A stretch of DNA of 16,123 nt from a virus (taxonomy: Duplodnaviria; Heunggongvirae; Uroviricota; Caudoviricetes), in the IMG/VR virus record IMGVR_UViG_2541047805_000004; one strand, 5' to 3'. How positions within the stretch are numbered: the stretch's first letter is position 1; each line of letters starts with the position of its first letter. Position numbers and translations under genes: made by a program. Shown here one piece after another: positions 1,383 to 16,123 of this stretch. The notes beneath the pieces were generated by a model that saw only the letters and a list, made by a program, of their open reading frames with translations, searched no databases and was not told the DNA's origin.

Positions 1383-1390
1383 AGGTTAAA
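1365..1390. repeat. Tandem heptamer repeat (TTAAAGG x3 plus partial unit) spanning the stop codon of the glycosyltransferase-like ORF
   Basis: Direct reading: ttaaagg ttaaagg ttaaagg ttaaa at 1365-1390. It encodes the C-terminal KLKVKG tail and contains the TAA stop at 1380-1382. Confidence 0.8.
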
Positions 1391-1395
1391 ATCAT

Positions 1396-1418
1396 AACCA
1401 CTCGCATAGCGGGTGGTT
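1396..1418. terminator. Stem-loop between convergent genes (possible bidirectional terminator) at the terminase truncation junction
   Basis: aaccactcgc ATA gcgggtggtt forms a roughly 10-bp stem (one G-U) with a 3-nt loop. It lies between the 3' ends of the + strand ORF (stop 1382) and the truncated terminase (stop 1458). The flanking T/A runs are modest. Confidence 0.35.
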
Positions 1419-1457
1419 ATCTGTCTCAGCCACGATACGCCTGAAACTGGCTTTAAG

Positions 1458-2568: not shown

Positions 2569-2574
2569 TGTTCA

Positions 2575-2800
2575 TTCCACGGACAAAAACAGAGAAAGGA
2601 AACGACAAAGGCCCAAAAGTTCGTTTTCAGCACCTGTCGTTTCCTTTCTTTTCAGGGGGTATTTTAAATAAAAACATTAAGTTACGACGAAGAAGAACGG
2701 AAACGCCTTAAACCGGAAAATTTTCATAAATAGCGAAAACCCGCGAGGTCGCCGCCCCGTAACCTGTCGGATCGCCGGAAAGGACCCACAAAATGATAAT
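2575..2800 (-). other. cos: Lambda-type cohesive end site (cosQ-cosN-cosB)
   Basis: The reverse complement of 2746-2757 is GGGCGGCGACCT, the lambda 12-nt cohesive end, followed on the minus strand by CGCGGGTTTTCGCTATTTATGAAAATTTTCCGGTTTAAGGCG (lambda left-end/cosB sequence) leading into Nu1. On the other side, ...CGATCCGACAGGTTACG matches the lambda right end. Confidence 0.75.
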
Positions 2801-2956
2801 GATTATCATCTGCATGTCACAACGTGCATCTACGCCATCAAACCACGTCAAATAATCAATTATGACGCAGGTATCGTATTAATTGATCTGCATCAACTTA
2901 ACGTAAAAACAACTTCAGACAATACAAATCAGCGACACTGAATACGGGACAACCTC

Positions 2957-3190
2957 ATGTCAACGAAGAACAGAACCCGCAGAACAACAACCCGCAACAT
3001 CCGCTTTCCTAACCAAATGATTGAACAAATTAACATCGCTCTTGATCAAAAAGGGTCCGGGAATTTCTCAGCCTGGGTCATTGAAGCCTGCCGCCGGAGA
3101 CTGTGCTCAGAAAAAAGAGTTTCTCCTGAAGCAAACAAAGAAAAGAGTGACATTACTGAATTGCTCAGAAAACAGATCAGACCAGATTGA
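2957..3190 (+). CDS. ylcI: Small basic protein, YlcI/YnfO-like (DUF3950); possible ribbon-helix-helix DNA-binding protein
   Basis: 77-aa ORF with ATG at 2957. It has an N-terminal Arg/Thr-rich basic stretch followed by RNIRFPNQMIEQINIALDQKGSGNFSAWVIEA, a strand-helix-helix-like pattern. Its position next to cos matches the ylcI locus of DLP12 and the small right-end ORF of lambda. Confidence 0.55.
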   Translation: MSTKNRTRRTTTRNIRFPNQMIEQINIALDQKGSGNFSAWVIEACRRRLCSEKRVSPEANKEKSDITELLRKQIRPD

Positions 3191-3248
3191 AGCAATTTAG
3201 ATAATCGTGCAGACTACGCCCCCCTCATATCACATGGAAGGTTTATCT

Positions 3249-3659
3249 ATGGATCAGGTAGTCATTTTTAAACAAATATTTGATAAAGTTCGAAACGATT
3301 TAAACTATCAATGGTTTTATTCTGAGCTAAAACGTCACAATGTCTCACATTACATTTACTATTTAGCCACAGAGAATGTTCATATTGTATTAAAAAATGA
3401 TAATACAGTGTTATTAAAGGGCCTAAAAAACATTGTGTCTGTCAAATTTTCAAAGGATAGGCATCTTATAGAAACGACCTCTAATAAGCTGAAATCCAGA
3501 GAGATCACATTTCAGGAATACAGAAGAAACCTTGCTAAAGCAGGAGTTTTTCGGTGGGTTACAAATATCCACGAACAAAAAAGATATTACTATACCTTTG
3601 ATAATTCATTACTCTTTACTGAAAACATACAGAGCACATCACAAATGTTTCCACACTAA
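3249..3659 (+). CDS. ybcV: DUF1398-family protein YbcV-like
   Basis: The ORF frame is open from 3207 (GTG). In-frame ATGs are at 3234 and 3249. The 3249 start has GGAAGG about 7 nt upstream and gives a 136-aa product, the length I recall for K-12 YbcV. It is 16 bp downstream of, and co-oriented with, the ylcI-like gene. Confidence 0.6.
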
Positions 3660-3961
3660 ACCATAACGTCCGGTTTCTTCTACCCCTGCACCGGACTGGC
3701 TGACATGAAGAGCAACCCCGCGTTCAGTTGACGCGTTAATAACCCGGTGTGCATCGTTTTTGATTATTCCCGCACACTCACGCAGAAGGAATTCCCCGTC
3801 GGGCTACGGTCATGGTTAATGCGGGAATACGGCGACGATACAGCGCATGATGTGTCAGGCTTGAATACCTTTATCCGTTAAAAGGGATATCAGTTAAGTT
3901 ATCCCGTGCAGGGTATAAGCCATTATCAAGCCCCCCGTAGATAGGCTTTGTAATGACATCT

Positions 3962-4486
3962 TCAATTAATCAGCAGTTCAGGCTGTGTCACCTGCAAGAT
4001 GTATTCATGCTCGACAGTCAGGACACGCTTCTCTTTCTTCCGTTCGTTCATTAACCGACTGCCGATCGTACCTTTCAGCTTTGAGCGTGTTTCTTTGATG
4101 GCGTAGCGGTGCTGCATTTCTTCGCCAATTGCCATGCGGCGGCTCAGTTGTTCTGCCATCCAGTTGAATGCTGCGATATAGCTCTCCTTGATTGCCGCAG
4201 CAGCTTTCCCGGTGAACCCCATCACAACCATGATCCAGCCATCTTTCGTCAGGCTGTACATCGGGCGAACCTTGCCCTGCTCATCGATATAATCAGCCGA
4301 CGCAAAATTGCGTTGGCTAAACTCACGCGAGCAATCAGCCTTAACCTGCTCGATTTTCCTGAGAACATCACCGTGTCGCTTGCCGAAGTACTTGGCAATT
4401 TTTCTGGATGTGGTAACGACCTCTCCGTTTTTGGCTTGCACCATTTCTCGGAAGTCGAAGGCTGGAATAACTGAATGATTATTCAT
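3962..4486 (-). CDS. Phage regulatory protein, Rha family (antirepressor-like)
   Basis: A 174-aa product from the ATG at 4486: MNNHSVIPAFDFREMVQAKNGEVVTTSRKIAKYFGKRHGDVLRKIEQ... This N-terminal signature is typical of the Rha/ORF6N domain family. The longer 255-aa ORF in the track has an N-terminal extension with no protein-like character. Confidence 0.6.
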   Translation of the reverse strand: MNNHSVIPAFDFREMVQAKNGEVVTTSRKIAKYFGKRHGDVLRKIEQVKADCSREFSQRNFASADYIDEQGKVRPMYSLTKDGWIMVVMGFTGKAAAAIKESYIAAFNWMAEQLSRRMAIGEEMQHRYAIKETRSKLKGTIGSRLMNERKKEKRVLTVEHEYILQVTQPELLIN

Positions 4487-4630
4487 AGCGTCTTTACCTT
4501 TTAGAAAGTGAGCCTGTCTCACAGAAAAGCCGCCCGAGAGAGGTCGCCACCTATAACGGCATTTCTCAGGCTCGCTTACTGAAAGGCTCTCGTTAATATG
4601 CGCGTGAGATGCGCTGTGAAATTCAGATAT

Positions 4631-4654
4631 AAAAAGCCCCGCGAATGCGAGGCT
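4631..4654 (-). terminator. Rho-independent terminator downstream of the lysis cassette (Rz/Rz1)
   Basis: The minus strand reads GCCTCGC ATTC GCGGGGC TTTTTAT: a 7-bp GC-rich stem (one G-U), a 4-nt loop and a T5 run. It lies about 175 nt after the Rz stop and about 145 nt before the Rha-like start. Confidence 0.6.
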
Positions 4655-4828
4655 AAATCCTGGTATTTGTAATGAACTGGCTCTTATCTCAACGCAGCCC
4701 CTTACTGCGCGCCAGATGCTCAATATCAAGCATCAGCAATGAGATGTTTAATCTGGATTTACTCCAGAAGTGATCACCACCCTGTCTACAGAGCCAGATG
4801 TGAAGGATGATGAGTAAAATTATCGCTA

Positions 4829-5296
4829 TCATCGAAGGCATTGCGTCCTAATGTATTCCTGAAGCGTTCTCAGTGCTGTTTGGTCGCGGATAATTCCGTC
4901 CCGGATATCGAGAACGTTTCGTCCAGCAACTGGAGAGAGTTCGACGGTGGCATCATTGCCCATGCCGGAGGCGCTGGAGGTTTCGGCAGAGGATGGCACA
5001 GGGCATTTTCCTTTGACGAGCACCCTGCCACCATTATCAAGCTTCCGCAGAAGAGCATCATTTTCAGCTTTCGCATCAGCTAACTCCTTCGTGTATTTTG
5101 CATCGAGCGCAGCAACATCACGCTGACGCATCTGCATGTCAGTAATTGCCGCGTTCGCCAGCTTCAGTTCTCTGACATTTTTGTCGCGCTGGGCTTTGTA
5201 GGTAATGGCGTTATCACGGTAATGATTAACAGCCCATGACAGGCAGACGATGATGCAGATAACCAGAGCGGAGATAATCGCGGTTACTCTGCTCAT
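4829..5296 (-). CDS. rzpD: Spanin inner-membrane subunit (Rz, i-spanin)
   Basis: [40 protein letters not shown]..., N-terminal TM followed by a coiled-coil; Rz-like. The ATG at 5296 overlaps the endolysin stop (ATGA). The track's longer ORF starts four codons upstream. Confidence 0.85.
4870..5076 (-). CDS. rzoD: Spanin outer-membrane lipoprotein subunit (Rz1, o-spanin), embedded in the +1 frame of Rz
   Basis: 68-aa ORF wholly inside Rz: [21 protein letters not shown]... It has a lipobox (VAGC) and a proline-rich [11 protein letters not shown] segment, typical of Rz1. Confidence 0.7.
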
Positions 5297-5790
5297 TGTT
5301 TCCCCCACAAACAGACTTCACGCTCAATCTCACGGCGAGTCATCAGTCCTTTCCATTGATTACCGCCAGCGTATGTCCAGCGCCGTAGCTGATCACATGC
5401 GCCTTTGATATCACCGTGGTTTATTTTGCGAAGAAGCGTCGATGTTCTGAAATTGCCAGCACCCACGTTGTAGACGAACGAGTAAAGAGCGCCGCGCGTT
5501 GTTTCCGGTATATCAACTTTTATGTACGGGTTAATTTGTCTGGCGACCGTGGCAAGGTCTTTATTCAGGAGGGCTTTGCATTCTGCTTTGGTATACGTTT
5601 TACCGAGCATGATGTCTTTTCCTGTATGCCCGTGACATACAGTCCATACACCAACAATATCTTTGTATGGTATGTAGCTGACACCTTCCAGACCATCGTT
5701 ACCACTTGGGCCAGTGATTAACACTGATGCTATAGCAATTGCTCCGCCACCAATAGCAGCAGCAACGGCTTTTCGTAATGATGGAGGCAT
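5293..5790 (-). CDS. rrrD: SAR endolysin (T4-lysozyme-like, GH24) of the phage 21 type
   Basis: 165-aa ORF whose N-terminal Gly/Ala-rich weakly hydrophobic segment ([18 protein letters not shown]) is a signal-anchor-release domain, followed by a lysozyme domain. I recognise it as DLP12 RrrD / phage 21 R. The ATG at 5790 overlaps the holin stop. Confidence 0.9.
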
Positions 5791-6005
5791 TATTCACCTC
5801 TCGCAGCCTTGCGCTTATCTTCTTTAATCTTGAAATAAAGGTTTGTCAGGTACGTCAGCAGGCCAAATACCAGGCTACCCAGCACACCTATTGCTGCCCA
5901 CTGTGAGGGCGTGACTTTATCGAGCAGCTGTAAAAACCAGTAACCGGCACTACCTGCTGAGGTGCCATAGGCGACACCCGTTGTTAACTTATCCATGGAT
6001 TTCAT
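5790..6005 (-). CDS. essD: Pinholin (S21-family holin) with dual-start motif
   Basis: [71 protein letters not shown]. It has two closely spaced starts (ATG at 6005 and 5996, Met-Lys-Ser-Met), characteristic of an antiholin/holin pair. The RBS GAGGTGG lies upstream of 6005. The track ORF extends 15 codons further upstream. Confidence 0.85.
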
Positions 6006-6594
6006 AACCCCACCTCGCAGACAAAGCGGGTGTAAATTGAGGGAATACAACGTATCGCAAAAAAGCAGAAACGTAACAGACTCGGAGTCAGTGAATAACT
6101 CAGGTATTGAGTTATCAGCTAATATCGAGACTCAAAAAATGGAAAAACCAGCTCGACGGCGGGTTTAAGCTGTGTGACGAAGTAACCACTCTTAACAGCA
6201 TAACCAATTTTTTACGTACGTAAACCACTGAATGATATTTATGAGAATGCTACCGAGTGTTCAAAACACCACCACAAATACATAAGAAAACCTCAACAAA
6301 TAACCAATAAATAATTTCCGGCGTTATTTTTAGTTAATTTAAATTAAACCATCGAATTATAGACCCCCCCATAAATAACAGCCATTAATATAAATTAGCT
6401 AATAGGTTTATTTTTGTTCAAATAAGAGCCATAAATAGGTTTCGATAGAAAAAGTTCAGATAAAAATAGAGATCTACTTCACAAATTAAATGAGAAACTA
6501 AAACTTACATCTTGAAATAATCACATTGATTAGATGAATATTTATCGCGCAGTGACATCATTTTTTAATAATAGTTCAAAAAAAAGGGCTCACG

Positions 6595-7677
6595 ATGAAA
6601 AAATTAACAGTGGCAATTTCTGCTGTAGCTGCATCAGTACTGATGGCGATGTCTGCTCAGGCAGCTGAAATTTATAATAAAGACAGTAACAAGCTGGATC
6701 TGTACGGGAAAGTTAATGCTAAGCACTACTTCTCCTCTAATGATGCAGATGATGGTGATACTACTTATGCCCGTCTTGGCTTCAAAGGTGAAACCCAAAT
6801 CAACGATCAACTGACTGGTTTCGGTCAGTGGGAATATGAATTCAAAGGCAACCGCGCTGAATCTCAAGGTTCCTCCAAAGATAAAACCCGTCTTGCCTTC
6901 GCTGGCCTGAAATTCGGTGACTACGGCTCCATCGATTACGGCCGTAACTACGGTGTAGCATACGACATCGGTGCGTGGACTGACGTCCTGCCAGAATTCG
7001 GTGGTGACACTTGGACTCAAACAGATGTGTTCATGACTGGTCGCACCACTGGTGTTGCAACTTATCGTAACAACGACTTCTTTGGTCTGGTTGATGGTCT
7101 GAACTTTGCTGCTCAGTATCAGGGTAAAAATGACCGCACTGACGTAACTGAAGCTAATGGTGATGGTTTCGGTTTCTCCACTACTTATGAGTATGAAGGA
7201 TTCGGTGTAGGTGCAACCTATGCTAAATCTGATCGCACTAATAATCAGGTTATCTACGGTAACAACGGTCTGAATGCTTCTGGTCAAAATGCTGAAGTAT
7301 GGGCAGCTGGTCTGAAATATGATGCGAACAACATCTATCTGGCCACCACCTATTCTGAAACCCAGAACATGACTGTTTTTGGTAATAACCATATTGCCAA
7401 CAAAGCACAAAACTTCGAAGCTGTTGCACAATATCAGTTCGACTTCGGCCTGCGTCCATCCGTTGCTTACCTGCATTCTAAAGGAAAAGACTTGGGTGTT
7501 TGGGGTGATCAGGACCTGGTTGAATATGTTGATGTAGGTGCAACCTATTACTTCAACAAAAATATGTCCACTTTTGTTGACTACAAAATCAACCTGATTG
7601 ATAAGAGCGATTTCACGAAAGCATCTGGCGTTGCTACCGATGATATCGTTGCTGTAGGTATGGTTTACCAGTTCTAA
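6595..7677 (+). CDS. nmpC: OmpC/OmpF-family general porin (NmpC/OmpD-like), apparently intact
   Basis: 360-aa ORF with signal peptide [23 protein letters not shown]|AEIYNKD, porin hallmarks throughout, and a C-terminal aromatic residue (…VYQF). AAGGG RBS before the ATG at 6595. It lies between Q and the holin on the opposite strand, the position of nmpC in DLP12. Confidence 0.9.
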
Positions 7678-7687
7678 TTTGATTACT

Positions 7688-7727
7688 AAAAGATATGTTG
7701 TGGGAGGCTTTGCCTCCCCAACATATA
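7688..7727 (-). terminator. Predicted tR'-like intrinsic terminator for the short late leader transcript
   Basis: The minus strand reads ATATGTTGGGGAGGC AAA GCCTCCCACAACATAT followed by CTTTTAG: a long GC-rich stem with a T-run. Its position about 100-170 nt downstream of Q is analogous to lambda tR'. Confidence 0.5.
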
Positions 7728-7789
7728 AGTGGCTCCCTCAAGCCACTTCCTTTAGAAGCACAACCTTGCTTCTAACTATACAAACCTTC

Positions 7790-7850
7790 TGTTATATATT
7801 ACCCTTTATTTTTGGGGGCGTTTCAACGCCCCATTTTTAATAACTTTTAG
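7790..7850 (-). promoter_or_regulatory. Predicted late promoter (pR'-like) and Q-utilisation region
   Basis: Immediately downstream of the Q stop, the minus strand has TTGAAA followed 18-19 nt later by TAATAT. Assigned by position and by analogy with lambdoid late regions; the exact start and pause site cannot be fixed from sequence alone. Confidence 0.3.
7814..7838 (+). terminator. Rho-independent terminator of the porin gene
   Basis: GGGGCGTT TCAA CGCCCC followed by ATTTTT on the + strand, about 140 nt after the porin stop. It overlaps the predicted late-promoter region on the opposite strand. Confidence 0.6.
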
Positions 7851-7865
7851 TAAATAATTGGCGTA

Positions 7866-8249
7866 TTAATTAGAGTTATTAACAACGATATCCATCTCTA
7901 ACCGGATATCTAATGCCATTAACATCCCTTCAATTATGCCCTCAGCCTTCTGTAACCTTTTCCCGATATAACCATCAGAGCAGCAATGCTTACCTGCCAG
8001 TGACATGAATGTCATACCGACTACATAATAATCTACTAATAAATCGTGCAAATCGCTGTTGTTCTTTTTCAGACGGGCCATGCACCCGCAAATGATCATC
8101 GCGTCATCGTCACAACATTGCGGGCGAGATTTTACTTTTGAAGGAATTAATCCCTTAAAACCGGCGGCAATGGACGACCAGGTCACATCTTCATGATTAT
8201 TAGCCGCCCACGCTCCCCAACGCTCAAGAACCATCTGAATATCACGCAT
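7866..8249 (-). CDS. quuD: Late-gene antiterminator Q (phage 82/21-type)
   Basis: 127-aa product from the ATG at 8249: [24 protein letters not shown]...[16 protein letters not shown]... (Cys-rich zinc-binding region). I recognise it as DLP12 QuuD. The track ORF starts five codons upstream. Confidence 0.85.
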
Positions 8250-8352
8250 CAACTTACTCCACAAAAATCAGACCAGAACGCCAATTACAAGCAAAAATCA
8301 ATAAAACAGTATTAGTTGATTGTTATCTCTGACTTCATACTCCTGCTCCTGT

Positions 8353-8472
8353 CAGGGTTTTGGCGTAATTCTTCAGTATTCGGTAATCGGTCAAAACAGA
8401 ACCGGGGAAACGATATAAGCGCAGACGCCCCCAGCGGTGGCGAAGAAGTTCTGCTATATTAAACTCAAACAT
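8353..8472 (-). CDS. ylcG: Small ORF, YlcG-like
   Basis: Hand translation from the ATG at 8472 (overlapping the rusA stop): [39 protein letters not shown]-stop, 39 aa. It is below the ORF-track size cutoff. Position between rusA and Q matches ylcG in DLP12. Confidence 0.4.
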
Positions 8473-8834
8473 CATTCATTCCCCATTTCGGTGATGGTCA
8501 GTTCCAGCCTCCCACCTTTGGTAACAGGCATCTTCACAACGCGGTAATCAACGACCTGAGCATCATCCAGCCAGAAACCTGCTTTAGTGAGTGCGTCAAA
8601 AGCGGCTTTTTGCAGATTATCCAGGTCACGGCGACGGCGATCCGGCATGTGGCACTCAATGCGGATTTTCACAGGCATAGCCAGGCCGATATCCAGCATT
8701 GCGCTTTTAATGATTCGGGCGACGTTATCGCGGTATGCCTGCCCCTCTGCACTGACGTGCGTGCGCCCGCGATTATGGCGGTAATAGCGATTATTGCTCG
8801 GAGGCCAGGGTAATGTGATACTGTAGGTATTCAC
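8472..8834 (-). CDS. rusA: Holliday junction resolvase RusA
   Basis: 120-aa [45 protein letters not shown]..., recognised as RusA. GTG start at 8834 overlapping the ybcO stop. Confidence 0.9.
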
Positions 8835-9121
8835 GCCTTAATAACCCCCTCTTTCAGCCAGATAACCTGTGTTCTCGCCATACCTTCCAGCGCGCATTCT
8901 TTTGCATATGCAGCATCGACAAAATGTGTGCGGCGGTCGATTTCGTCGTGGCAGGCAGAACATGCAATGGTGGCAATCAGGTCTGGCGGTTTGATACCGG
9001 TACCGCACAATCCAGCCAGCCGGATATGTGCCAGTACAGACGTTTCAGAATTGCCATTACATACGCCAGGGATTCTTACCTGGCATTCCCGACCACGCGC
9101 TGCTTTTCTCAAATCAGCCAT
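8831..9121 (-). CDS. ybcO: YbcO-like protein (DUF1364, putative metal-binding nuclease)
   Basis: 96-aa product from the ATG at 9121 with AAGGAGG RBS: [62 protein letters not shown]... (Cys/His cluster). The track ORF uses an upstream TTG. Confidence 0.8.
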
Positions 9122-9284
9122 GATTCCTCCTTGCTGCCAGTCGCAACCATTTTTTATCAACCAGGCTAGCGGTATATCCGAGCAGTGTTGGTATTTCGGA
9201 TGGCTTCAGCTCAGGCTTACGCTTACGACGATTTGATACTCTGTAGATGTGTCCGTTCATGACACGAATAAGCGGTGTAGCCAT
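9114..9284 (-). CDS. ninE: NinE-like small protein
   Basis: Hand translation from the ATG at 9284 (TAATG overlap with the ybcN stop): [56 protein letters not shown]-stop, 56 aa. It overlaps the ybcO start by 8 nt. Below the ORF-track cutoff. Confidence 0.6.
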   Translation of the reverse strand: MATPLIRVMNGHIYRVSNRRKRKPELKPSEIPTLLGYTASLVDKKWLRLAARRNHG

Positions 9285-9739
9285 TACGCCTCCTGCTTGT
9301 CGCGGAGCAGCTGGAACTCGCAGCTCTGCGGAATAGTCAGGTGGCAGCCAATATTCACCGCCCAGGCTTCAACCTTACACAGGAAGACATACATCTCTCC
9401 GGTATCAAGATCGGAGGTATGGCGTAACGACTGGATAGTGGTGATATCACCGGTTACGACATCAACCAGGTCTTTGGTTTCATAACCGAGATATGTGTGT
9501 TTGAGAGCATCTTTTACCCAAGCTGGAGTGGCGAACGTTTTACCCCTGCTGATGAGGTATTCACTGATTTCGCTGTACCACATGTGGCTGAGTGCATTCT
9601 GGGAAAGACTGCGTTTCTCACGCCACGGTTTAAGCACCATGCGAAAGCATTTGCCCTCCTCCAGATAAGGCTGGATCTGCCGACCGATAGCGGTGAAGTT
9701 GCCGCGATGTAATTTGATGCCGTCTTGTGAGAGGTTCAC
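9284..9739 (-). CDS. ybcN: NinB-family recombination protein (YbcN-like)
   Basis: 151-aa ORF with GTG start at 9739 and GGAGGTG RBS 5 nt upstream. It contains ...[22 protein letters not shown]..., resembling the NinB core. Confidence 0.8.
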
Positions 9740-9837
9740 GCTTCACCTCCGCAGAGGTCAAACGCTAGATGCAAAGAATTGCAGGTGCATTTCTGCATCT
9801 GTGAAGGGAGAAGAGAGTTTGGATTGTATGTGCGCAT
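9736..9837 (-). CDS. ylcH: Small ORF (33 aa), possibly YlcH-like
   Basis: Hand translation from the ATG at 9837: [33 protein letters not shown]-stop. Length and position (between ybcM and ybcN) match ylcH of DLP12, but the sequence itself has no recognisable features and coding potential is uncertain. Confidence 0.25.
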
Positions 9838-9860
9838 AAACGTCCCCGTTTAGCGCAGAA

Positions 9861-9889
9861 GTCACCGGAGTTGTTCAGGCTCCGGTGAC
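9861..9889 (-). terminator. GC-rich stem-loop downstream of ybcM (possible terminator with weak U-tract)
   Basis: gtcaccggag ttgttcagg ctccggtgac: a perfect 10-bp stem with a 9-nt loop, about 65 nt after the ybcM stop. The T-run is poor on both strands. Confidence 0.3.
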
Positions 9890-9953
9890 ATAATTATGCC
9901 GTGTTGATTTCCCAAAATCAAAATCGATAGAATTGCTCCTTCTTAAAACACTT

Positions 9954-10751
9954 TTACTCTCTGGAAGCTTTTCTTATCTCTCTTGGTGTTATATTAAAAC
10001 GATTATGAAATCTTTCAGTAAAACGAGAAGGACACTTATAACCATTTTCTCTGGCAATCTCGCTTATAGGTTTTACCGTCGTTTGTATAGCAGACAACGC
10101 ATTATTTAACCTCACATCGTCCAGTATACTTTGGAAACTTACCCCCTCGCTTGCTAGACGGCGATGTAATGTAGAAACAGAAATGTAGAGATATCGAGCA
10201 ACCTTGTTTGCTGTCCATTTTGTGCCGGGTTCGGATAGCAGCAGGTTATAACAACGACTTATCAATGATTGTTTACTATATGATAAAAGTAAATGATTAA
10301 CATGATTCACTCCTAACGAAAGTAGAACGCCCATTGCTAAGTGCTCCTGAATTTTAGTTGAGAAGCCTCGGGAAACAGATGTTTTTAGTTGCTCCCAACA
10401 ATATATTAACTCAGGATTCTGAGGTAAAAAGAAACTTGTTTTGTTACGTATTTGATCAGTTACCGTATAAAGTTTTTGGAAACTCTCAATTAAATCAATG
10501 GGTAAGTAAAGCATTTCTGCAAGATAAAGCCCTGCTTCAGGATAATTCTCAATATAAAATTCATAACCACAAGGAAATAATATTATTTGATTATTATCAA
10601 CAGTTAAAGTATGCGTCTCCCAATTGATAACTTTCTTTCCCTGACGGATACGACACAAAGCTGGCATAAGAGGCTTAACCCTATGAATCTCATGATGTTT
10701 ATGCATCCGTATTTCTTCGATCTTTAAGTTAGTCTTACCTCTTGCCAGCAT
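9954..10751 (-). CDS. ybcM: AraC/XylS-family transcriptional regulator
   Basis: 265-aa ORF. The C-terminal region (...[41 protein letters not shown]...[29 protein letters not shown]) is a typical AraC-type double-HTH domain. Low GC. ATG at 10751. Confidence 0.85.
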
Positions 10752-10760
10752 ACTCTCACC

Positions 10761-11312
10761 CTACTTTATCTCATAAACTGGTGTTATCTCAGCGGTTGCG
10801 ATTTTATTAGCATTAAGCATATAACCAACTAACGCTCCGCTGGAGTTAGAATCTACAGGAATCTTTTCAGTTTTTAGAGCCCATACTTTAAACTGGTAAT
10901 GATGTGGTTTATCTCCTTTAGGAGGACATGCGCCACCAAACCCAGCATAGCCAAAATCATTTCGGCCTTGAACAGCACCAGTCGGCAGTTTTGTTCCATC
11001 ACGTCTCCCTGCATCAACGGGCAAATATGTTATTGTTGCTGGAATATTAACAACAGTCCAATGCCACCAACCACTGCCTGTAGGTGCATCTGGATCATAT
11101 ACAGTTACGGCAAAGCTTTTGGTACCTTCAGGAACACCAGACCAGGTTAATGAGGGCGATGTATTACCACCTTCACACCCAAATCCAGAAAAGACATGAG
11201 ACGTTGTAAGTTGCTCTCCTGTTTTTATTTCATTACTAGTGACCTGAAATGCTGCAGCCTGCGCAGAAAATGTTATGAATGCCAATACAGTTGAAACGAT
11301 AAGTGTTTTCAT
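10761..11312 (-). CDS. ybcL: Periplasmic PEBP/RKIP-family protein (YbcL-like)
   Basis: 183-aa ORF with signal peptide MKTLIVSTVLAFITFSAQA|AAFQ. It has the PEBP-like motif region ...VYDPDAPTGSGWWHW...HHYQFKVWAL. AAGAGG RBS. It is 10 bp upstream of ybcM in the same orientation, so the two probably form an operon. Confidence 0.85.
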   Translation of the reverse strand: MKTLIVSTVLAFITFSAQAAAFQVTSNEIKTGEQLTTSHVFSGFGCEGGNTSPSLTWSGVPEGTKSFAVTVYDPDAPTGSGWWHWTVVNIPATITYLPVDAGRRDGTKLPTGAVQGRNDFGYAGFGGACPPKGDKPHHYQFKVWALKTEKIPVDSNSSGALVGYMLNANKIATAEITPVYEIK

Positions 11313-11528
11313 AAAAACCTCTTTGTTATGACCTATCGTTATTTTATTTGATATTCCTTTATCTCATTATGCATAAAGGCGCAATGTTTATGCAAAAGCA
11401 ATCACAATTGTACCCCCAACCCAATTATTTGCCACAATATACACAAAGCACATTGATACTATCTAAAAACTCTGCTTTATTATTAGTAATACCTACGAAA
11501 GTCGGTGTTATTTTTTAACCTACCATTC

Positions 11529-11578
11529 AAAATACGTGACATACACCATTTTGCTCATAATAATTTGTCACGTATTTT
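11529..11578. repeat. 50-bp element: perfect 13-bp inverted repeats (AAAATACGTGACA / TGTCACGTATTTT) flanking a 24-bp AT-rich spacer
   Basis: Read directly from the sequence: 11529-11541 and 11566-11578 are exact reverse complements. It lies in the intergenic region between the ybcK stop (11777) and the ybcL start (11312). Confidence 0.8.
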
Positions 11579-11776
11579 CAGTATTTGAATCTGCGACCAA
11601 GAGTTCTCACCTAACAAATGATTAAGATTGTATAGCTCATTTACTACCCCAATACAGCCGTACAAAACTCGCTTGTGGGAGCAAACAAAGTAATTACCCA
11701 TTAAGTTTCGTCAAAGATAATTAATTCTGTCTTGCACTTTATCACCATAGCATAACTTAAAATCCGAGATCATTAT

Positions 11777-13303
11777 TTAGAAATAAATCTCACCATCAAC
11801 CATATATTTGAGAGCACTTATCGCCTGCTGGGCGGATATTACTTTCATTAAAGGATAGTGTTTAAAAACAATGCCATTCATAAAATAGATATCACAGGTT
11901 TTATTATCCGTATTAATTATGATTTTTTCGAATGTTTTATAGGCAAGTGTACGGCATAACTCTCGTCCATTTTTACTGGTTAAGTCAATAGCATAAAAAT
12001 CACTGAATGAATTTACACCTTTACTCTTCAAAGTTTTCAATGATACCGAAGCCCTTCGTAATTCCTTATCTAATAGTCTTATTTTCTCTGCTATAGCGGT
12101 AACTTCAGGCGCGACAGACAATGCAACGATTAAATTATTAATTTTCATCTGAAGCTCAATAATTTTTAACTCTAAAGTTTCATTAGCATCTTTCTTGTTT
12201 TCAACTGGTTGAATTTTGCTACAATTAAAAAGCAATTCATTAATGATATTATAATCAACCAAATCTCTTTTTATTGATGGCCTGTCACATCGATGTAATC
12301 TTCTCATCGGACAAACATAATAGCCATGCAAACTTCCAGATACCGCATGAACAATCATGGTATTACCACAAGCCTCACACTTCATAACTGTTCGAAGTAG
12401 ATTTATTAGCATAGGATTCTTGCTACTATTGCTAATACCAAAAGGTGCCAACCGAATTTCCTGTACAGCGTAAAACAAATCATCTGATATAACTCTGGGA
12501 TAATAGCCAGCGATTTCACTTATCCCTTTCCCTCTTGCACGATATGAAGGTACGCATATACCTATCAGAGCTTTATTCGCTAATAATTTTTCAATTACAG
12601 AAGGTCCCCATGCACTTTCTTTTCCTGAGAAATTCTTTACAGCATGATCATTTAAATACTTGGCTATTGCATTCAATGAGCGCCTTTCCATCCTGAGTTT
12701 AAAAATTAGCTCAATAGTTTTCACCCTGTCGGGGTCTGGAACAAAAGCCGTTCTTTTGTCATCTAAGGAGAGCCATCTCGGACAAGACGCCGTCATAATC
12801 GTACCTGATTCCATTGCATCCTGCCGTTTTTTCTTCCATGATAATTTAACCCGACTTGACTTTATCTCGCTTTCTTCATTTGCCCTTTGTGCTATAAGTA
12901 TGGCTTTTATTAATGAATATGGCTCATTCAAAGAGTCAATATTATAGACTGTATTGTCGCAAAGAGTTATAACATCAATACCGTGATTCAAAATCAATTT
13001 CAGACGTTCAATCGCTTCACCGACTTTTTCTCTTGAAAGTCTGTCCAGACTTTCAACTAACAATGTAGTTCCTGGCAATATATAACCATGCTCTATAGCA
13101 TCTAAAAATTCCGAAAAAGCTCCTGATTGTGCATGCTTTCCTTTGAATGCACTTAATCCTAAATCTTCATATGTTATGGTATCAAGATAATAATCACTAT
13201 TTACCTTTAACCATTCAGCAATAAGTCTTCTCTGTCGGTTTAATGAGTCACCAGACATCTGACCTGGTGATGAAAATCGCATATATGCTATGGCTTTTTT
13301 CAT
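11777..13303 (-). CDS. ybcK: Large serine recombinase (resolvase/invertase N-terminal catalytic domain plus recombinase and zinc-ribbon domains)
   Basis: 508-aa ORF. N-terminus AIAYMRFSSPGQ (catalytic Ser context) and LVESLDRLSRE (resolvase motif); a C-terminal Cys cluster (CEACGNTM...YYVCPMRRLHRCD) followed by a coiled-coil-like region. Very low GC. ATG at 13303 with AGGTG RBS. Confidence 0.85.
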   Translation of the reverse strand: MKKAIAYMRFSSPGQMSGDSLNRQRRLIAEWLKVNSDYYLDTITYEDLGLSAFKGKHAQSGAFSEFLDAIEHGYILPGTTLLVESLDRLSREKVGEAIERLKLILNHGIDVITLCDNTVYNIDSLNEPYSLIKAILIAQRANEESEIKSSRVKLSWKKKRQDAMESGTIMTASCPRWLSLDDKRTAFVPDPDRVKTIELIFKLRMERRSLNAIAKYLNDHAVKNFSGKESAWGPSVIEKLLANKALIGICVPSYRARGKGISEIAGYYPRVISDDLFYAVQEIRLAPFGISNSSKNPMLINLLRTVMKCEACGNTMIVHAVSGSLHGYYVCPMRRLHRCDRPSIKRDLVDYNIINELLFNCSKIQPVENKKDANETLELKIIELQMKINNLIVALSVAPEVTAIAEKIRLLDKELRRASVSLKTLKSKGVNSFSDFYAIDLTSKNGRELCRTLAYKTFEKIIINTDNKTCDIYFMNGIVFKHYPLMKVISAQQAISALKYMVDGEIYF

Positions 13304-13487
13304 GGTGACACCTGCTAACGTATGCTTTTATAAACCTTAGTGGTGGGATATAATTTTTGTTTAATTTTTATTTAAAAAGACAATTAAGGTCACATTATCT
13401 TGAATATACAACAATAATCGTATTGCAATTTTCTTACGCCATAATCTTGAAAGCACAAAAGAATACATAAAAAATAAAGACATTAAC

Positions 13488-13527
13488 AAAAAGCATAAAA
13501 CGAGGCTCATATAAATATAAGAGCCTC
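13488..13527 (-). terminator. Predicted rho-independent terminator of emrE
   Basis: About 30 nt after the emrE stop, the minus strand reads GAGGCTC...(12-nt AT loop)...GAGCCTC followed by GTTTTATGCTTTTTG. The stem is 7 bp with a long loop, so this is a moderate call. Confidence 0.45.
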
Positions 13528-13557
13528 CATATTTTAGTCGTTTAGAAACAAATTATT

Positions 13558-13890
13558 TTAATGTGGTGTGCTTCGTGACAATAAATTAATAACCAACACA
13601 CCGGCACAAATCAACATCATGCCTATAATGGCTGGCAGGTCCAGCCGTTGGCCGAAAAATCCCCATGACAGTAAACTAATCAGGACAATACCGACTCCTG
13701 ACCAGATAGCATAAGCAATCCCTGTAGGAATATAAGCCAGCGTCTGAGCTAATAACCAGAATGATGCACAATAACAAATAATTGTACCAACAGATGGCCA
13801 TAACCGTGTAAAACCTTCTGAAAACTTCATTAAGGTTGTACCAATGACCTCTGCAAGTATTGCACCACCAAGATAAATATAAGGGTTCAT
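13558..13890 (-). CDS. emrE: SMR-family multidrug efflux transporter EmrE
   Basis: 110-aa product from the ATG at 13890 (AGGAAAG RBS): MNPYIYLGGAILAEVIGTTLMKFSEGFTRLWPSVGTIICYCASFWLLAQTLAYIPTGIAYAIWSGVGIVLISLLSWGFFGQRLDLPAIIGMMLICAGVLVINLLSRSTPH. Four TM helices and the conserved membrane-embedded Glu (AEVIG). The track ORF includes an upstream in-frame extension. Confidence 0.9.
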   Translation of the reverse strand: MNPYIYLGGAILAEVIGTTLMKFSEGFTRLWPSVGTIICYCASFWLLAQTLAYIPTGIAYAIWSGVGIVLISLLSWGFFGQRLDLPAIIGMMLICAGVLVINLLSRSTPH

Positions 13891-13905
13891 AGCATATTCT
13901 TTCCT

Positions 13906-13940
13906 GTTCAAACTGGAGAGAATTGTACTACAGTTTGAAC
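13906..13940 (-). promoter_or_regulatory. Perfect 10-bp stem / 15-nt loop hairpin immediately upstream of the emrE RBS
   Basis: gttcaaactg (13906-13915) and cagtttgaac (13931-13940) are exact reverse complements. On the minus strand the hairpin ends about 1 nt before the emrE Shine-Dalgarno and lies 18-50 nt after the ren stop. Confidence 0.5.
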
Positions 13941-13957
13941 TCAACTCACCTGTTTCA

Positions 13958-14260
13958 TCATTGTGTTCCCATTGATGTTCTTTTATATACCCTCAATACC
14001 CGTTTCATCGCGGCACTCTGGCGACACTCCTTAAAAATCAGATTCGTGCTCACCTTTCCTTCCCGTTCTTCTCTGGTAGCGAACCGGTAATACACCGTTC
14101 GCCAGACCTTACCATCAACGACCAGGATTCCTGCCCGCGCCATTTTAGCCGCAGCCTGATTTATGCTGGTTACGGTTGCGCCTGTTACCGCGGCAACGTC
14201 CTGTGCACAGAAGCTCTTATGCGTCCCCAGGTAATGAATAATTGCCTCTTTGCCCGTCAT
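13958..14260 (-). CDS. ren: Ren protein (lambda Ren-like)
   Basis: 100-aa ORF MTGKEAIIHYLGTHKSFCAQDVAAVTGATVTSINQAAAKMARAGILVVDGKVWRTVYYRFATREEREGK..., recognised as lambda Ren. The ATG at 14260 overlaps the P stop, as in lambda. Confidence 0.85.
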   Translation of the reverse strand: MTGKEAIIHYLGTHKSFCAQDVAAVTGATVTSINQAAAKMARAGILVVDGKVWRTVYYRFATREEREGKVSTNLIFKECRQSAAMKRVLRVYKRTSMGTQ

Positions 14261-14958
14261 ACACTTGCTCCTTTCAGTCCGAACTTAGCTTTAATTTCTG
14301 CGATCTTCGCCAGAGCCTGTGCACGATTTAGAGGTCTACCGCCCATAACAGGAAGTTGTTTTACTGGTTCAGGTATCGTCTCACCACGGTTAATTCGCGC
14401 TGTCATACAGGTCAGTTCATCGGCAGCCTTGCGCCGTAATTCCGCGTCAGTCAGCGCATTGGCCCGCATGTTCTGGTACAAGTTGGTAACCAACCAGTAA
14501 TGCGCGTTCGATTTCCACGGATAAGACTCTGCATCCGGATACAGGCCACGCTTCCGGCAATACTCGTAAACCATATCAACCAGCTCGCTGACGTTTGGCA
14601 GCCCGGCGTTAACAGATGCTTCTTCCCGGCACCAGGCGACAAACTGCCCGGGTGATGGCAGGAATGGTCGATTCTGCCGACGGGCTACGCGCATTCCAGC
14701 GTTAACCTGTTCCATTGTGGTGATCCCGTTTTCCCGGAAAGCCAGAACCCACTGGCGGCGGATTTCGTTCAGTTCATTCTGGTCACGGTTAGCCAGGCTC
14801 GCCGGGAAAGTTGCCAGTAACTGGCTTAACACACCGTTGATGATCTGCGCTACCTGCTGTACCTGTGGCTTTTCGTCGTACTGTTCCGGCATGTTGTTGG
14901 CGATCCGGCGCATCTGCTCACAGTCAAAGTTAACCATCTGTGCGGCGATGTTTTTCAT
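14257..14958 (-). CDS. P: Replication protein P (DnaB helicase loader), apparently full length
   Basis: 233-aa ORF MKNIAAQMVNFDCEQMRRIANNMPEQYDEKPQVQQVAQIINGV...KAKFGLKGASV, recognised as lambda P at lambda P length. The ATG at 14958 overlaps the end of the O reading frame. Confidence 0.9.
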   Translation of the reverse strand: MKNIAAQMVNFDCEQMRRIANNMPEQYDEKPQVQQVAQIINGVLSQLLATFPASLANRDQNELNEIRRQWVLAFRENGITTMEQVNAGMRVARRQNRPFLPSPGQFVAWCREEASVNAGLPNVSELVDMVYEYCRKRGLYPDAESYPWKSNAHYWLVTNLYQNMRANALTDAELRRKAADELTCMTARINRGETIPEPVKQLPVMGGRPLNRAQALAKIAEIKAKFGLKGASV

Positions 14959-15425
14959 AGCTCCACCCCGTAAATCCAGTCAGTGTTCGTCAGGTCGAGT
15001 TTTGGTTTGCTGGCAGTCACACCAGCCTGTTGCTTGTTACGGTTGATTTCGAGTTGGGTCCACTTGTCGCGGAGTTTGGCCGGACTTAGCACGTTACCGG
15101 ACCAGAAGTTGTCCTGGCATGCCCAGCGGAACAGCACGCACATGTCGCGGTGGTTACGTCCGTCACGTTCACGCATCAGGCGGATATCGTTAGCCCACCC
15201 TGCAAAATTCGGTTTTCTGGCTGATGGCGCGATGGTCTTCACCATGTCAAACATCCACTCTGCGGCGGTCAGGTCTTCTGCTGTCCCCCACCTGCTGCCG
15301 CTCTGAATTGCAGCATCTGGTTTCTCCACAGGAAGATCGTTTTCTGGTTGGTCAGAGGATTCGCCAGAATTCTCGGACGAAAAAGGTTTTATATTGTCTT
15401 TTGTTAGTTTGTCTTTTGTGTTTAC
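14955..15425 (-). pseudogene. O: Replication initiator O, 3' fragment only (ori AT-rich region and C-terminal P-interacting domain); iterons and N-terminal domain absent
   Basis: The frame ending ...KPKLDLTNTDWIYGVEL-stop is open upstream to about 15518 with no ATG. Minus-strand sequence from about 15420 downward (ACAAAAGACAAACTAACAAAAGACAATATAAAACC...GAGAATTCTGGCGAATCCTCTGACCA...) matches my recollection of the lambda ori AT-rich region and the downstream O coding sequence. Sequence above about 15425 is unrelated. Confidence 0.7.
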
Positions 15426-15565
15426 CTGATTCGGGTAAACGCCTTTACCCCAGCTTCGGCTTCGCGGAGAATACTGATGATCTGTTCGTCGGAAAAACGC
15501 TTCTTCATGGGGATGTCCTCATGTGGCTTATGAAGACATTACTAACATCGGGGTGTACTAATCAA
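15422..15565 (-). mobile_element. Remnant of an IS3-family insertion sequence (left end plus the first ~21 codons of the transposase OrfA) at the int/O deletion junction
   Basis: The minus-strand ATG at 15508 encodes MKKRFSDEQIISILREAEAGV..., a typical N-terminus of IS3-family OrfA (HTH_Tnp_1) proteins. The frame then hits a stop after 28 codons, where the sequence becomes the lambda ori region. About 55 bp upstream of the ATG, a TGATTAG... sequence is consistent with an IS terminus. Boundaries are approximate. Confidence 0.35.
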
Positions 15566-15577
15566 CGGGGAGCAGGT

Positions 15578-16123
15578 CAGAGATCAAGACTTACGGCTGA
15601 CGAATACCTGAAAATTTATCAAGCAGCAGAATCATCACCATGTTGGCTCAGACTTGCAATGGAACTGGCTGTTGTTACCGGGCAACGAGTTGGTGATTTA
15701 TGCGAAATGAAGTGGTCTGATATCGTAGATGGATATCTTTATGTCGAGCAAAGCAAAACAGGCGTAAAAATTGCCATCCCAACAACATTGCATGTTGATG
15801 CTCTCGGGATATCAATGAAGGAAACACTTGATAAATGCAAAGAGATTCTTGGCGGAGAAACCATAATTGCATCTACTCGTCGTGAACCGCTTTCATCCGG
15901 CACAGTATCAAGGTATTTTATGCGCGCACGAAAAGCATCAGGTCTTTCCTTCGAAGGGGATCCGCCTACCTTTCACGAGTTGCGCAGTTTGTCTGCAAGA
16001 CTCTATGAGAAGCAGATAAGCGATAAGTTTGCTCAACATCTTCTCGGGCATAAGTCGGACACCATGGCATCACAGTATCGTGATGACAGAGGCAGGGAGT
16101 GGGACAAAATTGAAATCAAATAA
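15578..16123 (+). pseudogene. int: Lambda-like tyrosine integrase, C-terminal catalytic-domain fragment (N-terminal arm- and core-binding domains deleted)
   Basis: From about 15580 to the stop at 16121-16123 the translation (RSRLTADEYLKIYQAAESSPCWLRLAMELAVVTGQRVGDLCEMKWSDIVDGYLYVEQSKTGVKIAIPT...HELRSLSARLYEKQISDKFAQHLLGHKSDTMASQYRDDRGREWDKIEIK) matches my recollection of about the last 180 residues of lambda Int, including the catalytic R-H-R-Y region. The upstream part of the track ORF (15224-15577) is antisense to O and IS sequence and has no Int similarity. Confidence 0.85.

Follow-up and report, generated by a model that had tools for sequence, protein, structure and literature searches.

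The stretch of DNA analysed here (the window, 16,123 nucleotides) is a dead lambda-like prophage of Escherichia coli that carries the scar of two successive deletions, a product of ordinary prophage decay. That the scar, in a defective lambdoid prophage at att-lambda, is now inert we regard as the best explanation of the locus and as a highly probable one. The initial annotation had read the junction between int and O as the work of a single IS-associated deletion. The two gene fragments are indeed joined across a truncated IS3-family element, but by two events. The case is useful mainly because the intermediate is extant in relatives at near-100% identity, so that the steps can be read to the base. 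Prophage domestication is here resolved into stages, in which the excision genes would have been lost first and the control region and origin thereafter, by way of a trapped, still-inducible intermediate that would have been a liability to its host.

The prophage and its gene fragments

The window matches the NCBI scaffold KE700470.1 at 100% identity and, set against the prophage of E. coli SW070917, shows two SNPs and one indel in 16.1 kb, plus two deletions. The two prophages are colinear in blocks, with window positions 1490-15449 corresponding to 6869-20827 of the undeleted SW070917 locus (L003) and 15446-16123 corresponding to 28605-29282. SW070917 has in addition an IS1 with a 9-bp duplication. 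The idea that the window is simply a cut-down SW070917 record was rejected, as it lacks that strain's IS1 and 9-bp duplication and has SNPs of its own; it therefore represents a sister lineage. The SW070917-type parent lineage is rare, being found in one of 5,426 complete E. coli genomes.

The att-lambda core ACTTTTTTATACTAA lies at the ybhB-side end of the prophage (window 91-105, - strand), and the second core follows the int stop, which is also the right end of the window, at a distance of 74 bp in the colinear SW070917 record. With core repeats at both ends, and with ybhB and ybhC on either side in both SW070917 and KE700470.1, this is an att-lambda cryptic prophage. It is also a defective one: xis is absent, only truncated forms of int and of O with its origin are left, a cut at about codon 190 interrupts terminase A, and the head and tail genes are gone. 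The cut in terminase A belongs to a second, separate deletion of about 1.67 kb, which runs from a tail-fibre-assembly remnant to that codon and whose junction, with TAT microhomology, was placed at 1489-1492 (no strand assigned) by comparison with L003. KE700470.1 has the same junction, as do Logan assemblies of three sequencing runs. An Rfam scan of 13500-16123 found no RNA family.

At the right end of the window, positions 15581-16123 (+ strand) encode residues 177-356 of lambda Int, as established by protein alignment and Pfam. This fragment, int', is identical to lambda Int at 178 of 180 residues, matches Phage_integrase (PF00589) over positions 2-168 of 172 (E 3e-41), and has all six catalytic residues (R212, K235, H308, R311, H333 and Y342), so the full catalytic domain that had been claimed is present, to its native stop after KIEIK. 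Residues 1-176, that is, the arm-binding and core-binding domains with the native start, are absent, and RefSeq treats the identical int stretch in SW070917 as a pseudogene that lacks the N-terminus. In-frame ATGs for int' lie at 15521 and 15530 within the IS remnant and at 15659 within int. The initial annotation had allowed that an assembly artefact at the window end might conceal complete genes; the source scaffold, however, continues into ybhC, and it is the window that stops at the int stop.

The facing fragment, O' (14955-15449, - strand), comprises the last 164 codons of a 339-aa lambda-type O, the P-interacting C-terminal half, as judged by alignments and PHROG. It is identical to parental O over residues 176-339 (164/164) and, at the nucleotide level, to L003 20333-20827 (100%); it shares 146 of 160 residues with lambda O 139-299 and matches PHROG 277 ('replication initiation O-like') over positions 147-317 of 318. 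A Pfam search of the 164 codons found no family, and hence no N-terminal iteron-binding domain (Phage_rep_O); parental residues 1-175 are missing, as had been proposed for the DNA-binding domain. The frame is open to the junction, the native start is absent, and the first in-frame start is a GTG at 15329.

The AT-rich segment of the lambdoid origin is retained at 15380-15420 (no strand; aligned with lambda 39019-39240 and the parent) and holds the tandem 15-mers TTATATTGTCTTTTG and TTAGTTTGTCTTTTG. The O iterons had been given as lost altogether. Most are gone, but one complete, palindromic iteron, TTTACCTGATTCGGGTAAA, remains at 15421-15439 (no strand), where it is ITN5 of the parental five and occupies the position of lambda ITN4. 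The last 6 nt of the parental ITN4 (TTTACC on the + strand) also remain at 15444-15449 (no strand), as placed by the overlap of BLAST blocks. One complete iteron, where at least four were looked for, compares with five in the parent and four in lambda and, because the DNA-binding domain of O is absent as well, the origin should be unable to fire.

The IS remnant and a two-step history

Between int' and O' lies a 134-bp remnant of an ISSen4-like element of the IS3 family (15446-15579, - strand; BLAST and RefSeq), comprising the left inverted repeat, the leader and 21 codons of orfA. It is 100% identical to L003 28605-28738, the left end of a 1,221-bp element with TGACCTGC... inverted repeats, the full form of which RefSeq names 'IS3-like element ISSen4 family' in the relative; the IS derivation of this gap, and the truncated transposase frame noted within it, are thereby upheld. 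The left inverted repeat, TGACCTGCTCCCCGTTGATTAG... (in short form TGACCTGCTCCCC...), starts at 15579 on the - strand, and the truncated frame (15508-15422, - strand) runs for 28 aa, MKKRFSDEQIISILREAEAGV followed by seven out-of-frame codons. Full ISSen4-like copies have orfA (HTH_Tnp_1) and orfB (rve), joined by programmed frameshift. Unlike them, the remnant lacks orfB, and with it the DDE domain, and of the two terminal repeats (TG...CA) it has the left only, the right one lying in the deleted interval. Because the DDE domain and the right inverted repeat are absent, the remnant cannot transpose.

The deletion junction itself falls at 15446-15449, where TACC is common to the IS and O sides and where the BLAST blocks against L003 overlap by 4 nt (14900-15449 on the O side, 15446-16123 on the IS side). 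Thus the IS does meet the origin, as the initial annotation had it, but here and not at about 15425. The break lies 134 bp into the IS, at orfA codon 21, and 1,087 of its 1,221 bp are deleted.

Comparison with the relatives shows how this arrangement came about. In a first step, the 1,221-bp ISSen4-like element was placed between an ea22-like gene and int codon 177, with loss of the end of ea22, xis and int residues 1-176. No target duplication was left, the full copy in SW070917 being flanked by CGCT on one side and GAGA on the other. An int break at the IS terminus without target duplication fits an IS-adjacent deletion and not a simple insertion. Excision was then impossible and the prophage trapped, with its SOS-type repressor, Cro analogue, O, P, five-iteron origin, kil and gam/bet/exo all kept; this state is extant in E. 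coli SW070917 and GCA_900449675.1. In a second step, in the lineage of GCA_000458495.1, a 7,777-bp deletion ran from orfA codon 21 to the end of iteron 4 by way of the TACC microhomology, taking with it the entire early-left operon and the immunity region, the greater part of the IS, O codons 1-175 and four of the five iterons. Parsimony points to this order, the IS-int' junction being shared and the O junction private.

The corresponding interval of L003 carries genes for the S24 repressor and for YdaS-like and YdaT-like proteins, together with kil, gam, bet, exo, ea22' and the part of O that encodes its N-terminus. The immunity region has therefore gone, as had been stated, but it was not that of lambda: its repressor was of the S24-peptidase type, its Cro analogue was YdaS-like, and it also encoded a protein with a YdaT domain. 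The prophage now has neither a repressor gene nor a pR-type promoter, since the interval with the repressor, the Cro analogue and the intergenic region is deleted. The reported loss of gam/bet/exo and of xis likewise stands, with xis already lost in the first step.

Might a single, transposase-driven adjacent deletion have fused int to the origin at one stroke? IS-mediated adjacent deletions leave the element whole and end at its terminus. The int-side break is of just this kind, at an IS terminus and free of target duplication, and the IS3-family remnant sits exactly between int' and O'. The O-side break, however, lies within an element that is itself mostly deleted, at codon 21 of orfA and with TACC microhomology, and relatives with the same IS-int' junction (GCA_900449675.1 and at least 15 metagenome contigs have it with the full IS) still carry the full IS, immunity, O and P. 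We consider a single event of this sort extremely unlikely. A break inside the IS was not made by its transposase, and in the second of the two steps the IS was a bystander.

The junction of O' with the IS is known from short-read-era draft assemblies only. It occurs in none of the 5,426 complete E. coli genomes, about 2,450 of which carry this origin allele, and the exact junction 36-mer has no match in GTDB representative genomes or JGI metagenomes. In exact-protein look-ups, the 299-aa junction ORF is not on record; the 124-aa O' returns only L004, an unrelated 47-bp iteron deletion; the 99-aa O' returns contig-end fragments, one frameshifted O and one IS5-type junction; and the 200-aa and 197-aa forms of int' return parent-type contigs only. 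A chimeric join arising in the library or the draft assembly would explain such a distribution, the more so as two sister junctions (see below) are likewise confined to draft or short-read assemblies, and as the iteron array has a strong tendency to form hairpins, which can promote the formation of chimeric molecules in a library. Nevertheless, a 4-bp overlap is far under any assembler k-mer, and in the KE700470.1 scaffold more than 6 kb on either side of the junction is uninterrupted sequence free of Ns. One further similar place and two samples are on record for the junction contig, and several independent sequencing runs bear out the 1.67-kb deletion of this window. Moreover, absence from complete genomes is to be expected, because the parent lineage is so rare among them. 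An artefact is thus very improbable, and we take the junction to be real.

P and ren

P (14257-14958, - strand) is an intact lambda-type DnaB helicase loader of 233 aa by Pfam, PHROG and alignment. It is identical to lambda P at 226 of 233 residues and is a full-length loader by its matches to PF06992 (E 2e-60) and to PHROG 109 (positions 1-233 of 236); the gene is equipped with a GGAG-type ribosome-binding site of its own, and its start codon shares the sequence ATGA with the stop of O. ren (13958-14260, - strand; ORF, PHROG and alignment) is likewise intact at 100 aa, matching the PHROG 'Ren-like exclusion protein' (E 6e-42) and lambda Ren at 83 of 92 residues. The initial annotation was thus right to call both genes intact. 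It went on to ask how P is kept silent or whether it has been co-opted, and the idea that intactness might point to either finds no support in the comparison with the undeleted parent. P is nucleotide-identical to the parental gene, and the Ren protein is that of SW070917 (WP_000145915.1), the one SNP in the gene (14228) being synonymous; there has therefore been no time for decay, and the intactness of P is uninformative on co-option.

With the pR-type promoter lost, P and ren are probably, to judge from the sequence, transcribed very weakly if at all. A scan of the - strand over 13800-16123 gave no sigma-70 consensus promoter and no terminator, consensus promoter scans being weak evidence. 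The best of the relaxed promoter matches are AAGACA-N16-TATAAA at 15415 to 15388 and, in the IS left end, TTGATT-N18-TAATGT (7 of 12 positions, read by eye). A weak transposase promoter in the IS left end appears to be the only candidate upstream of P and ren, and Rho polarity is likely, since about 460 nt separate the end of the 28-codon IS ORF from P.

If the IS left-end promoter drove a low, constitutive expression of P and ren, the host could in principle benefit, for example by curing ColE1-type plasmids or by interfering with incoming lambdoid phages. P, with its own ribosome-binding site, does share a strand with the transposase promoter region and lies downstream of it, no terminator being predicted in the interval, and at sub-induction levels P cures ColE1 plasmids and can trans-activate (PMC3640518). 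However, the near-identity of P and ren to their parental counterparts carries no signal of selection, no consensus promoter is present, and PADLOC assigned none of five proteins (P, ren, O', int' and ybcK) to a defence family. The same P allele is also widespread in ordinary prophages: the public collection lists the exact protein in 2,300 blocks, and O is complete upstream of it at every place shown. Co-option is accordingly doubtful in the extreme, and a deletion scar gives no reason to assign P or ren a new role.

Replicative killing, neutral decay and the iteron boundary

A derepressed prophage that cannot excise would be expected to kill its host, both by in-place replication and by the toxicity of Kil and P. 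Trapped lambda prophages do bring about replicative killing, the survivors of which have insertions or deletions in O or P, and constitutive P is lethal whereas low P levels are tolerated (PMC3640518; PMC6022878). The 7,777-bp deletion may have disarmed just such a trapped, still-inducible prophage, its joint loss of repressor, promoter and origin being what would place it in the survivor class selected in the classical 'replicative killing' experiments. Here we infer selection from the parts that were lost; a neutral deletion would look identical.

Neutral decay alone would make the 7.8-kb deletion a product of random illegitimate recombination, with no fitness effect, in one sampled lineage. 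Consistent with this, its junction is private to one assembly lineage, the dead structural genes of the same prophage have suffered the unrelated 1.67-kb microhomology deletion, and related att-lambda prophages have many other deletions, such as a gam'-'int fusion. On the other hand, the parent has all the parts for in-place replication yet cannot excise, a state that is lethal on induction in lambda (PMC3640518; PMC6022878), and O and the origin have been destroyed in the same parent by two further deletions, both independent, that end at the same 3 nt. We thus view decay without any fitness effect as possible but unlikely, and favour disarming of the trapped prophage.

The RK- survivors of the Hayes laboratory arose from a non-excisable, derepressible lambda fragment with intact O-P-ori; their lesions are insertions or deletions within O or P, or else large deletions by which immunity is lost too, and the immunity-negative ones are mostly large deletions of more than 10 kb (PMC3640518; PMC6022878). 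The window deletion is smaller, at 7.8 kb, and takes repressor, promoter, O N-terminus and iterons together. The RK- survivors, however, are laboratory selections (cI857 at 42 C), whereas the window comes from a natural isolate for which we infer selection, and its lineage has an S24-peptidase type of repressor with YdaS/YdaT-like neighbours, as opposed to the cI/cro/cII of lambda in the RK- system.

The three deletions, all independent and in the same trapped prophage type, have a right breakpoint that is common within 3 nt. They span 1.2, 3.6 and 7.8 kb, and on the left they reach into the cro analogue, kil and the IS; two of the three are in sister genomes and end at the same GTA/AAGGCG site as the one in the window. 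This point (window 15445/15446, + strand) is the boundary between the last two iterons. We tentatively suggest, as a possibility short of a probable one, that the boundary is a hot spot at which deletions form in a site-specific manner. A fixed DNA end or a template-switch acceptor may arise there when the O-some binds, the origin fires or a hairpin is processed, and this end may be joined to variable upstream partners via 3-6-bp microhomology. If the pattern is upheld in a larger survey, there would be a defined DNA break or strand-switch site at the lambdoid origin and, with it, a natural-population read-out of replicative killing, so far a laboratory phenomenon. Natural E. coli would then carry recurrent 'escape from replicative killing' deletions, with the common end marking an origin break in vivo.

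The other two hot-spot junctions are also found in none of the 5,426 complete genomes. An anchor scan of 120 IMG/VR loci found intact arrays except for two iteron-to-iteron deletions, and a 'not-parent' pattern in the 100 nt left of the last iteron was found nowhere in IMG/VR and once in JGI metagenomes, as a further iteron-to-iteron deletion. The iteron array folds as a single strand into a very stable structure (-28.6 kcal/mol, z -7.8), with the hot spot not in a distinctive loop. Protection of the fixed end by a Chi site was considered and rejected, the sole GCTGGTGG in the 31-kb locus lying outside the prophage.

A further point of comparison is DLP12 of E. coli K-12, which has in common with the window prophage both cargo and late-gene backbone (ren, emrE, ylcJ, ybcK, ybcL, ybcM, ybcN, ninE, ybcO, rusA, ylcG, quuD, porin, essD, rrrD and nohD). 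DLP12 likewise lacks the immunity region and O, its deletion, as here, butting a left-arm fragment against a replication-gene fragment (exoD' and 'peaD, 14 bp apart), and it too has an IS3-family element in this neighbourhood. However, DLP12 resides at argU with a different, intact intD, whereas the window prophage is at att-lambda with a lambda-type int fragment. The DLP12 deletion enters P, of which a 312-bp fragment (peaD) is left, and renD has IS3 inserted in it, whereas P and ren are whole in the window. Unlike in DLP12, the IS remnant of the window itself forms the junction, and the undeleted parent is extant in relatives.

Origin loss within O is known from the lambda ori- 'r' mutants (r93, r95, r96, r98 and r99) and ti12, in which iterons or AT-rich sequence are lost. 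The r mutations are 12-24-bp in-frame deletions that leave O translatable (PMC6022878), whereas the window deletion, at 7.8 kb, takes away the N-terminal domain of O and has an end in DNA outside the origin. Natural iteron-to-iteron deletions that do resemble the r mutants occur at four of the surveyed loci (L004, L077, L173 and L178).

A deletion scar in a decayed lambdoid prophage

The whole window is a single decayed lambdoid prophage with a DLP12-like gene order (nohD, lysis genes, porin, quuD, rusA, ninE, ybcN, ybcM, ybcL, ybcK, emrE, ren, P) and an att-lambda core at 91–105. It matches NCBI scaffold KE700470.1 (assembly GCA_000458495.1) at 100% identity over 1–12048 and 9659–16123, and because this scaffold continues into ybhC, the prophage is placed between ybhB and ybhC, the lambda attachment site. 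The porin gene (6595–7677) is an uninterrupted 360-aa ORF, annotated as ompC in E. coli SW070917 and occupying the nmpC position of DLP12.

SW070917 is the nearest complete genome, and three colinear blocks match: window 1–1488, 1490–15449 and 15446–16123 correspond to 2937–4424, 6869–20827 and 28605–29282 of its locus (L003), which is taken as the undeleted parent state. Differences within these blocks amount to just two SNPs and one indel; P has none of them, the one in ren is synonymous, and the other two fall in ybcK, at 11899 and 11923. The latter gene, encoding a large serine recombinase (11777–13303), is intact in the window (508 aa) and frameshifted by a 1-nt indel in SW070917. Absent from the window are 7,777 bp that lie between the second and third blocks in SW070917, comprising O codons 1–175, a YdaT-domain gene, a YdaS-like Cro analogue, an S24-peptidase repressor, a kil-like gene, gam, bet and exo, several small genes with an ea22 fragment, and 1,087 of the 1,221 bp of an IS3-family element (ISSen4 family by RefSeq annotation). 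The two blocks share TACC, the microhomology at the window's O/IS junction.

That the window is a cut-down SW070917 record was rejected, since the IS1 of SW070917 and its 9-bp duplication (ATCCTTCCG) are missing from it. Where SW070917 has this IS1, the window carries a second deletion of ~1.67 kb with TAT microhomology at 1489–1492 (L003 4424–6869); it takes a tail-fibre-assembly remnant and terminase A past about codon 190, is unrelated to the O deletion, and has a junction that recurs in Logan assemblies of runs SRR25824837, SRR12302563 and SRR18230974.

The initial annotation allowed that the join might be an artefact of assembly. The window's O/IS junction is indeed found in none of 5,426 complete E. 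coli genomes, nor in GTDB representatives or JGI metagenomes; the parent lineage is scarce as well, being represented by a single complete genome of the 5,426. KE700470.1 has no Ns in this region and is contiguous across the junction, the overlap there is 4 bp and hence not the product of a k-mer assembler, and one more similar place is reported by look-up. An artefact is thus an unlikely source of the junction.

What the scar retains was largely described correctly from the first reading: an Int C-terminal fragment to its native stop, an O C-terminal fragment with whole P and ren, and between them an IS3-family transposase ORF broken off after ~21 codons. The minus strand carries ren (13958–14260), P (14257–14958; a 233-aa protein agreeing with lambda P at 226/233 residues, its matches in both Pfam and PHROG being full-length) and O' (14955–15449), the final 164 codons of the O gene, whose frame is open to 15449 and past, with its first start a GTG at 15329 lacking an obvious ribosome-binding site. 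The truncated IS ORF (15508..15422, minus strand) has 28 codons, the first 21 of which, MKKRFSDEQIISILREAEAGV, are the beginning of IS3-family orfA. On the plus strand, int' (15581 to the window end, 16123) comprises 180 residues against lambda Int 177–356 (178/180 identity), matches positions 2–168 of the 172 of Pfam Phage_integrase, and retains the complete set of six catalytic residues, ending with KIEIK at the native stop. The join of IS to origin also stands, at 15446–15449 rather than about 15425; most iterons are lost, though not all as had been claimed, one full repeat (15421–15439) and 6 nt of its neighbour surviving. Tested as a replication module, an IS or an integrase, none of these remnants qualifies as functional. 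The initial observation is therefore confirmed, and its interpretation partly supported.

Two breaks and the role of the insertion element

In SW070917 the full element has inverted repeats TGACCTGCTCCCC... and TGACCTGCCCCC... and is flanked by CGCT and GAGA, hence without target duplication. Its neighbours are ea22 without its end on one side and int from codon 177 on the other, with xis missing between, which is the structure that an IS-adjacent deletion leaves on the int side. A full IS is joined to int' in the same way in GCA_900449675.1 and at least 15 metagenome contigs; this junction therefore predates the one in O and is common to these relatives. The O-side break lies 134 bp within the IS and destroys it, and so was not made by the transposase. 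"IS-associated deletion," as the event had been called, is accordingly valid for the int break only.

Other rearrangements are seen here. A human gut metagenome contig (k127_78170; L006:1–720) keeps the IS|int' junction with a truncated IS that stops at window-equivalent 15458 (12 bp from the break in the window) and is joined to foreign AT-rich DNA encoding a 205-aa protein without match in the parent locus; in another locus (L012), that element abuts, on its inner side, a porin fragment and a further IS. A 154-aa C-terminal Int ORF (15659–16123) beside ybhC is found in 773 blocks of the public collection, after many different truncations, so dead lambda-type int remnants at att-lambda are very common; among its neighbours (L038–L046; L189:11312–12472) are IS3-family elements, frameshifts and, in strain Z1323HEC0011, a gam'-'int fusion.

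A shared break point at the origin

Look-up of the 96-aa O' ORF reported by gene callers for the source returned further O truncations with intact P, two of which represent independent deletions in prophages of the parent type. One (L050, Logan SRR31527761) lacks L003 20830–24411 and joins the kil-like gene to the origin; the other (L054, GCA_907172615.1 and similar places) lacks 20827–22026 and joins the Cro analogue to it. The left sides of both are 100% identical to SW070917. L050, L054 and the window all read ...GTA|AAGGCGTTTACCC..., the common right break GTA|AAGGCG falling at the end of iteron 4 (window 15444–15449; L050:2795–2800; L054:2798–2800; L052:2797–2800; equivalent to L003 20824–20829), and the left partners end CAGGTA, GGAGTA and GGGGTA, giving 6, 3 and 4 nt of microhomology, respectively. 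These deletions of 1.2, 3.6 and 7.8 kb thus share one end in the same trapped prophage type with different left partners, and no one of them can have arisen from another, since each preserves DNA or parental junction bases that are gone from another. Were breaks spread evenly over the ~300 bp in which this O' ORF would still be called, three would fall within 4 nt with a chance of order 1e-4 to 1e-3, by informal estimate.

From these three events, found by one ascertainment route, we hypothesize that GTA|AAGGCG may mark a hot spot for deletion within the origin. As a single strand the iteron array is strongly structure-prone (z −7.8). Scans of IMG/VR and JGI for more cases gave iteron-to-iteron deletions only, and the two sister junctions are absent from all complete genomes searched. 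Protection of the fixed end by Chi was rejected, no Chi site accounting for it. The scar in the window, an ordinary and very recent one in a cryptic prophage, is itself of low interest; the break point merits a proper survey.

The same architecture is also reached by a fourth, separate route: insertion of an IS5-like (DDE_Tnp_1) element at CTAA in the AT-rich segment, window-equivalent 15407 (L049, L051 and L055 at 2839; L036 at 61; several assemblies), which leaves O' and P without immunity in att-lambda prophages with intact int and xis. The small iteron-to-iteron deletions in otherwise complete O (L004:379–387, 47 bp; L077 and L173, both from IMG/VR; L178:2280–2410) are natural counterparts of lambda r-type ori mutants, although some of these deletions may be repeat collapse in metagenome assemblies.

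Fate of P and possible selection

With the deletion went the sole promoter from which O-P-ren is known to be transcribed in phages of this type, and a consensus scan of the minus strand over 13800–16123 found no promoter and no terminator. A relaxed scan of that strand gives AAGACA-N16-TATAAA at 15415→15388, in the AT-rich origin segment and present in the parent too; by eye, the IS left end reads TTGATT-N18-TAATGT (7 of 12 consensus positions). The 28-codon IS ORF ends about 460 nt before P, and if the IS promoter fires, this untranslated stretch would be expected to invite Rho termination before P. Upstream read-through on P's strand is unlikely because ybhC points away. P has its own GGAG-type site, so any transcript reaching it could be translated; constitutive P is lethal, and low levels are tolerated by cells (PMC3640518). 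By default, P is taken to be silent or almost silent.

For the suggestion that P and ren had been co-opted there is no evidence. The intactness of P is uninformative on selection because the protein is identical to that of the undeleted parent; the public collection lists the exact same protein in 2,300 blocks, with full O upstream in every place shown. P, ren, O', int' and ybcK match no PADLOC family, and no Rfam RNA family is present over 13500–16123.

The parent retains an SOS-type repressor, O, P and a complete origin, with excision and particle formation both impossible. In lambda, a derepressed trapped fragment replicates in place, with rapid death, and survivors of such replicative killing have O or P altered by an insertion or deletion, or have lost immunity as well in a large deletion (PMC3640518; PMC6022878). 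In the window one deletion took out the repressor, the promoter and kil along with the O N-terminus and four iterons; this is the safest outcome, since no derepressed promoter remains in front of P. Selection against in-place replication may thus have favoured the deletion, in agreement with the laboratory survivors; a neutral deletion is a possible alternative. The nearest described object, DLP12 of K-12, shares the cargo backbone and is likewise missing immunity and O, there via an exoD'|'peaD junction and with an IS3 inside renD; it differs in its argU site, its intact and different integrase, and the loss of most of P.
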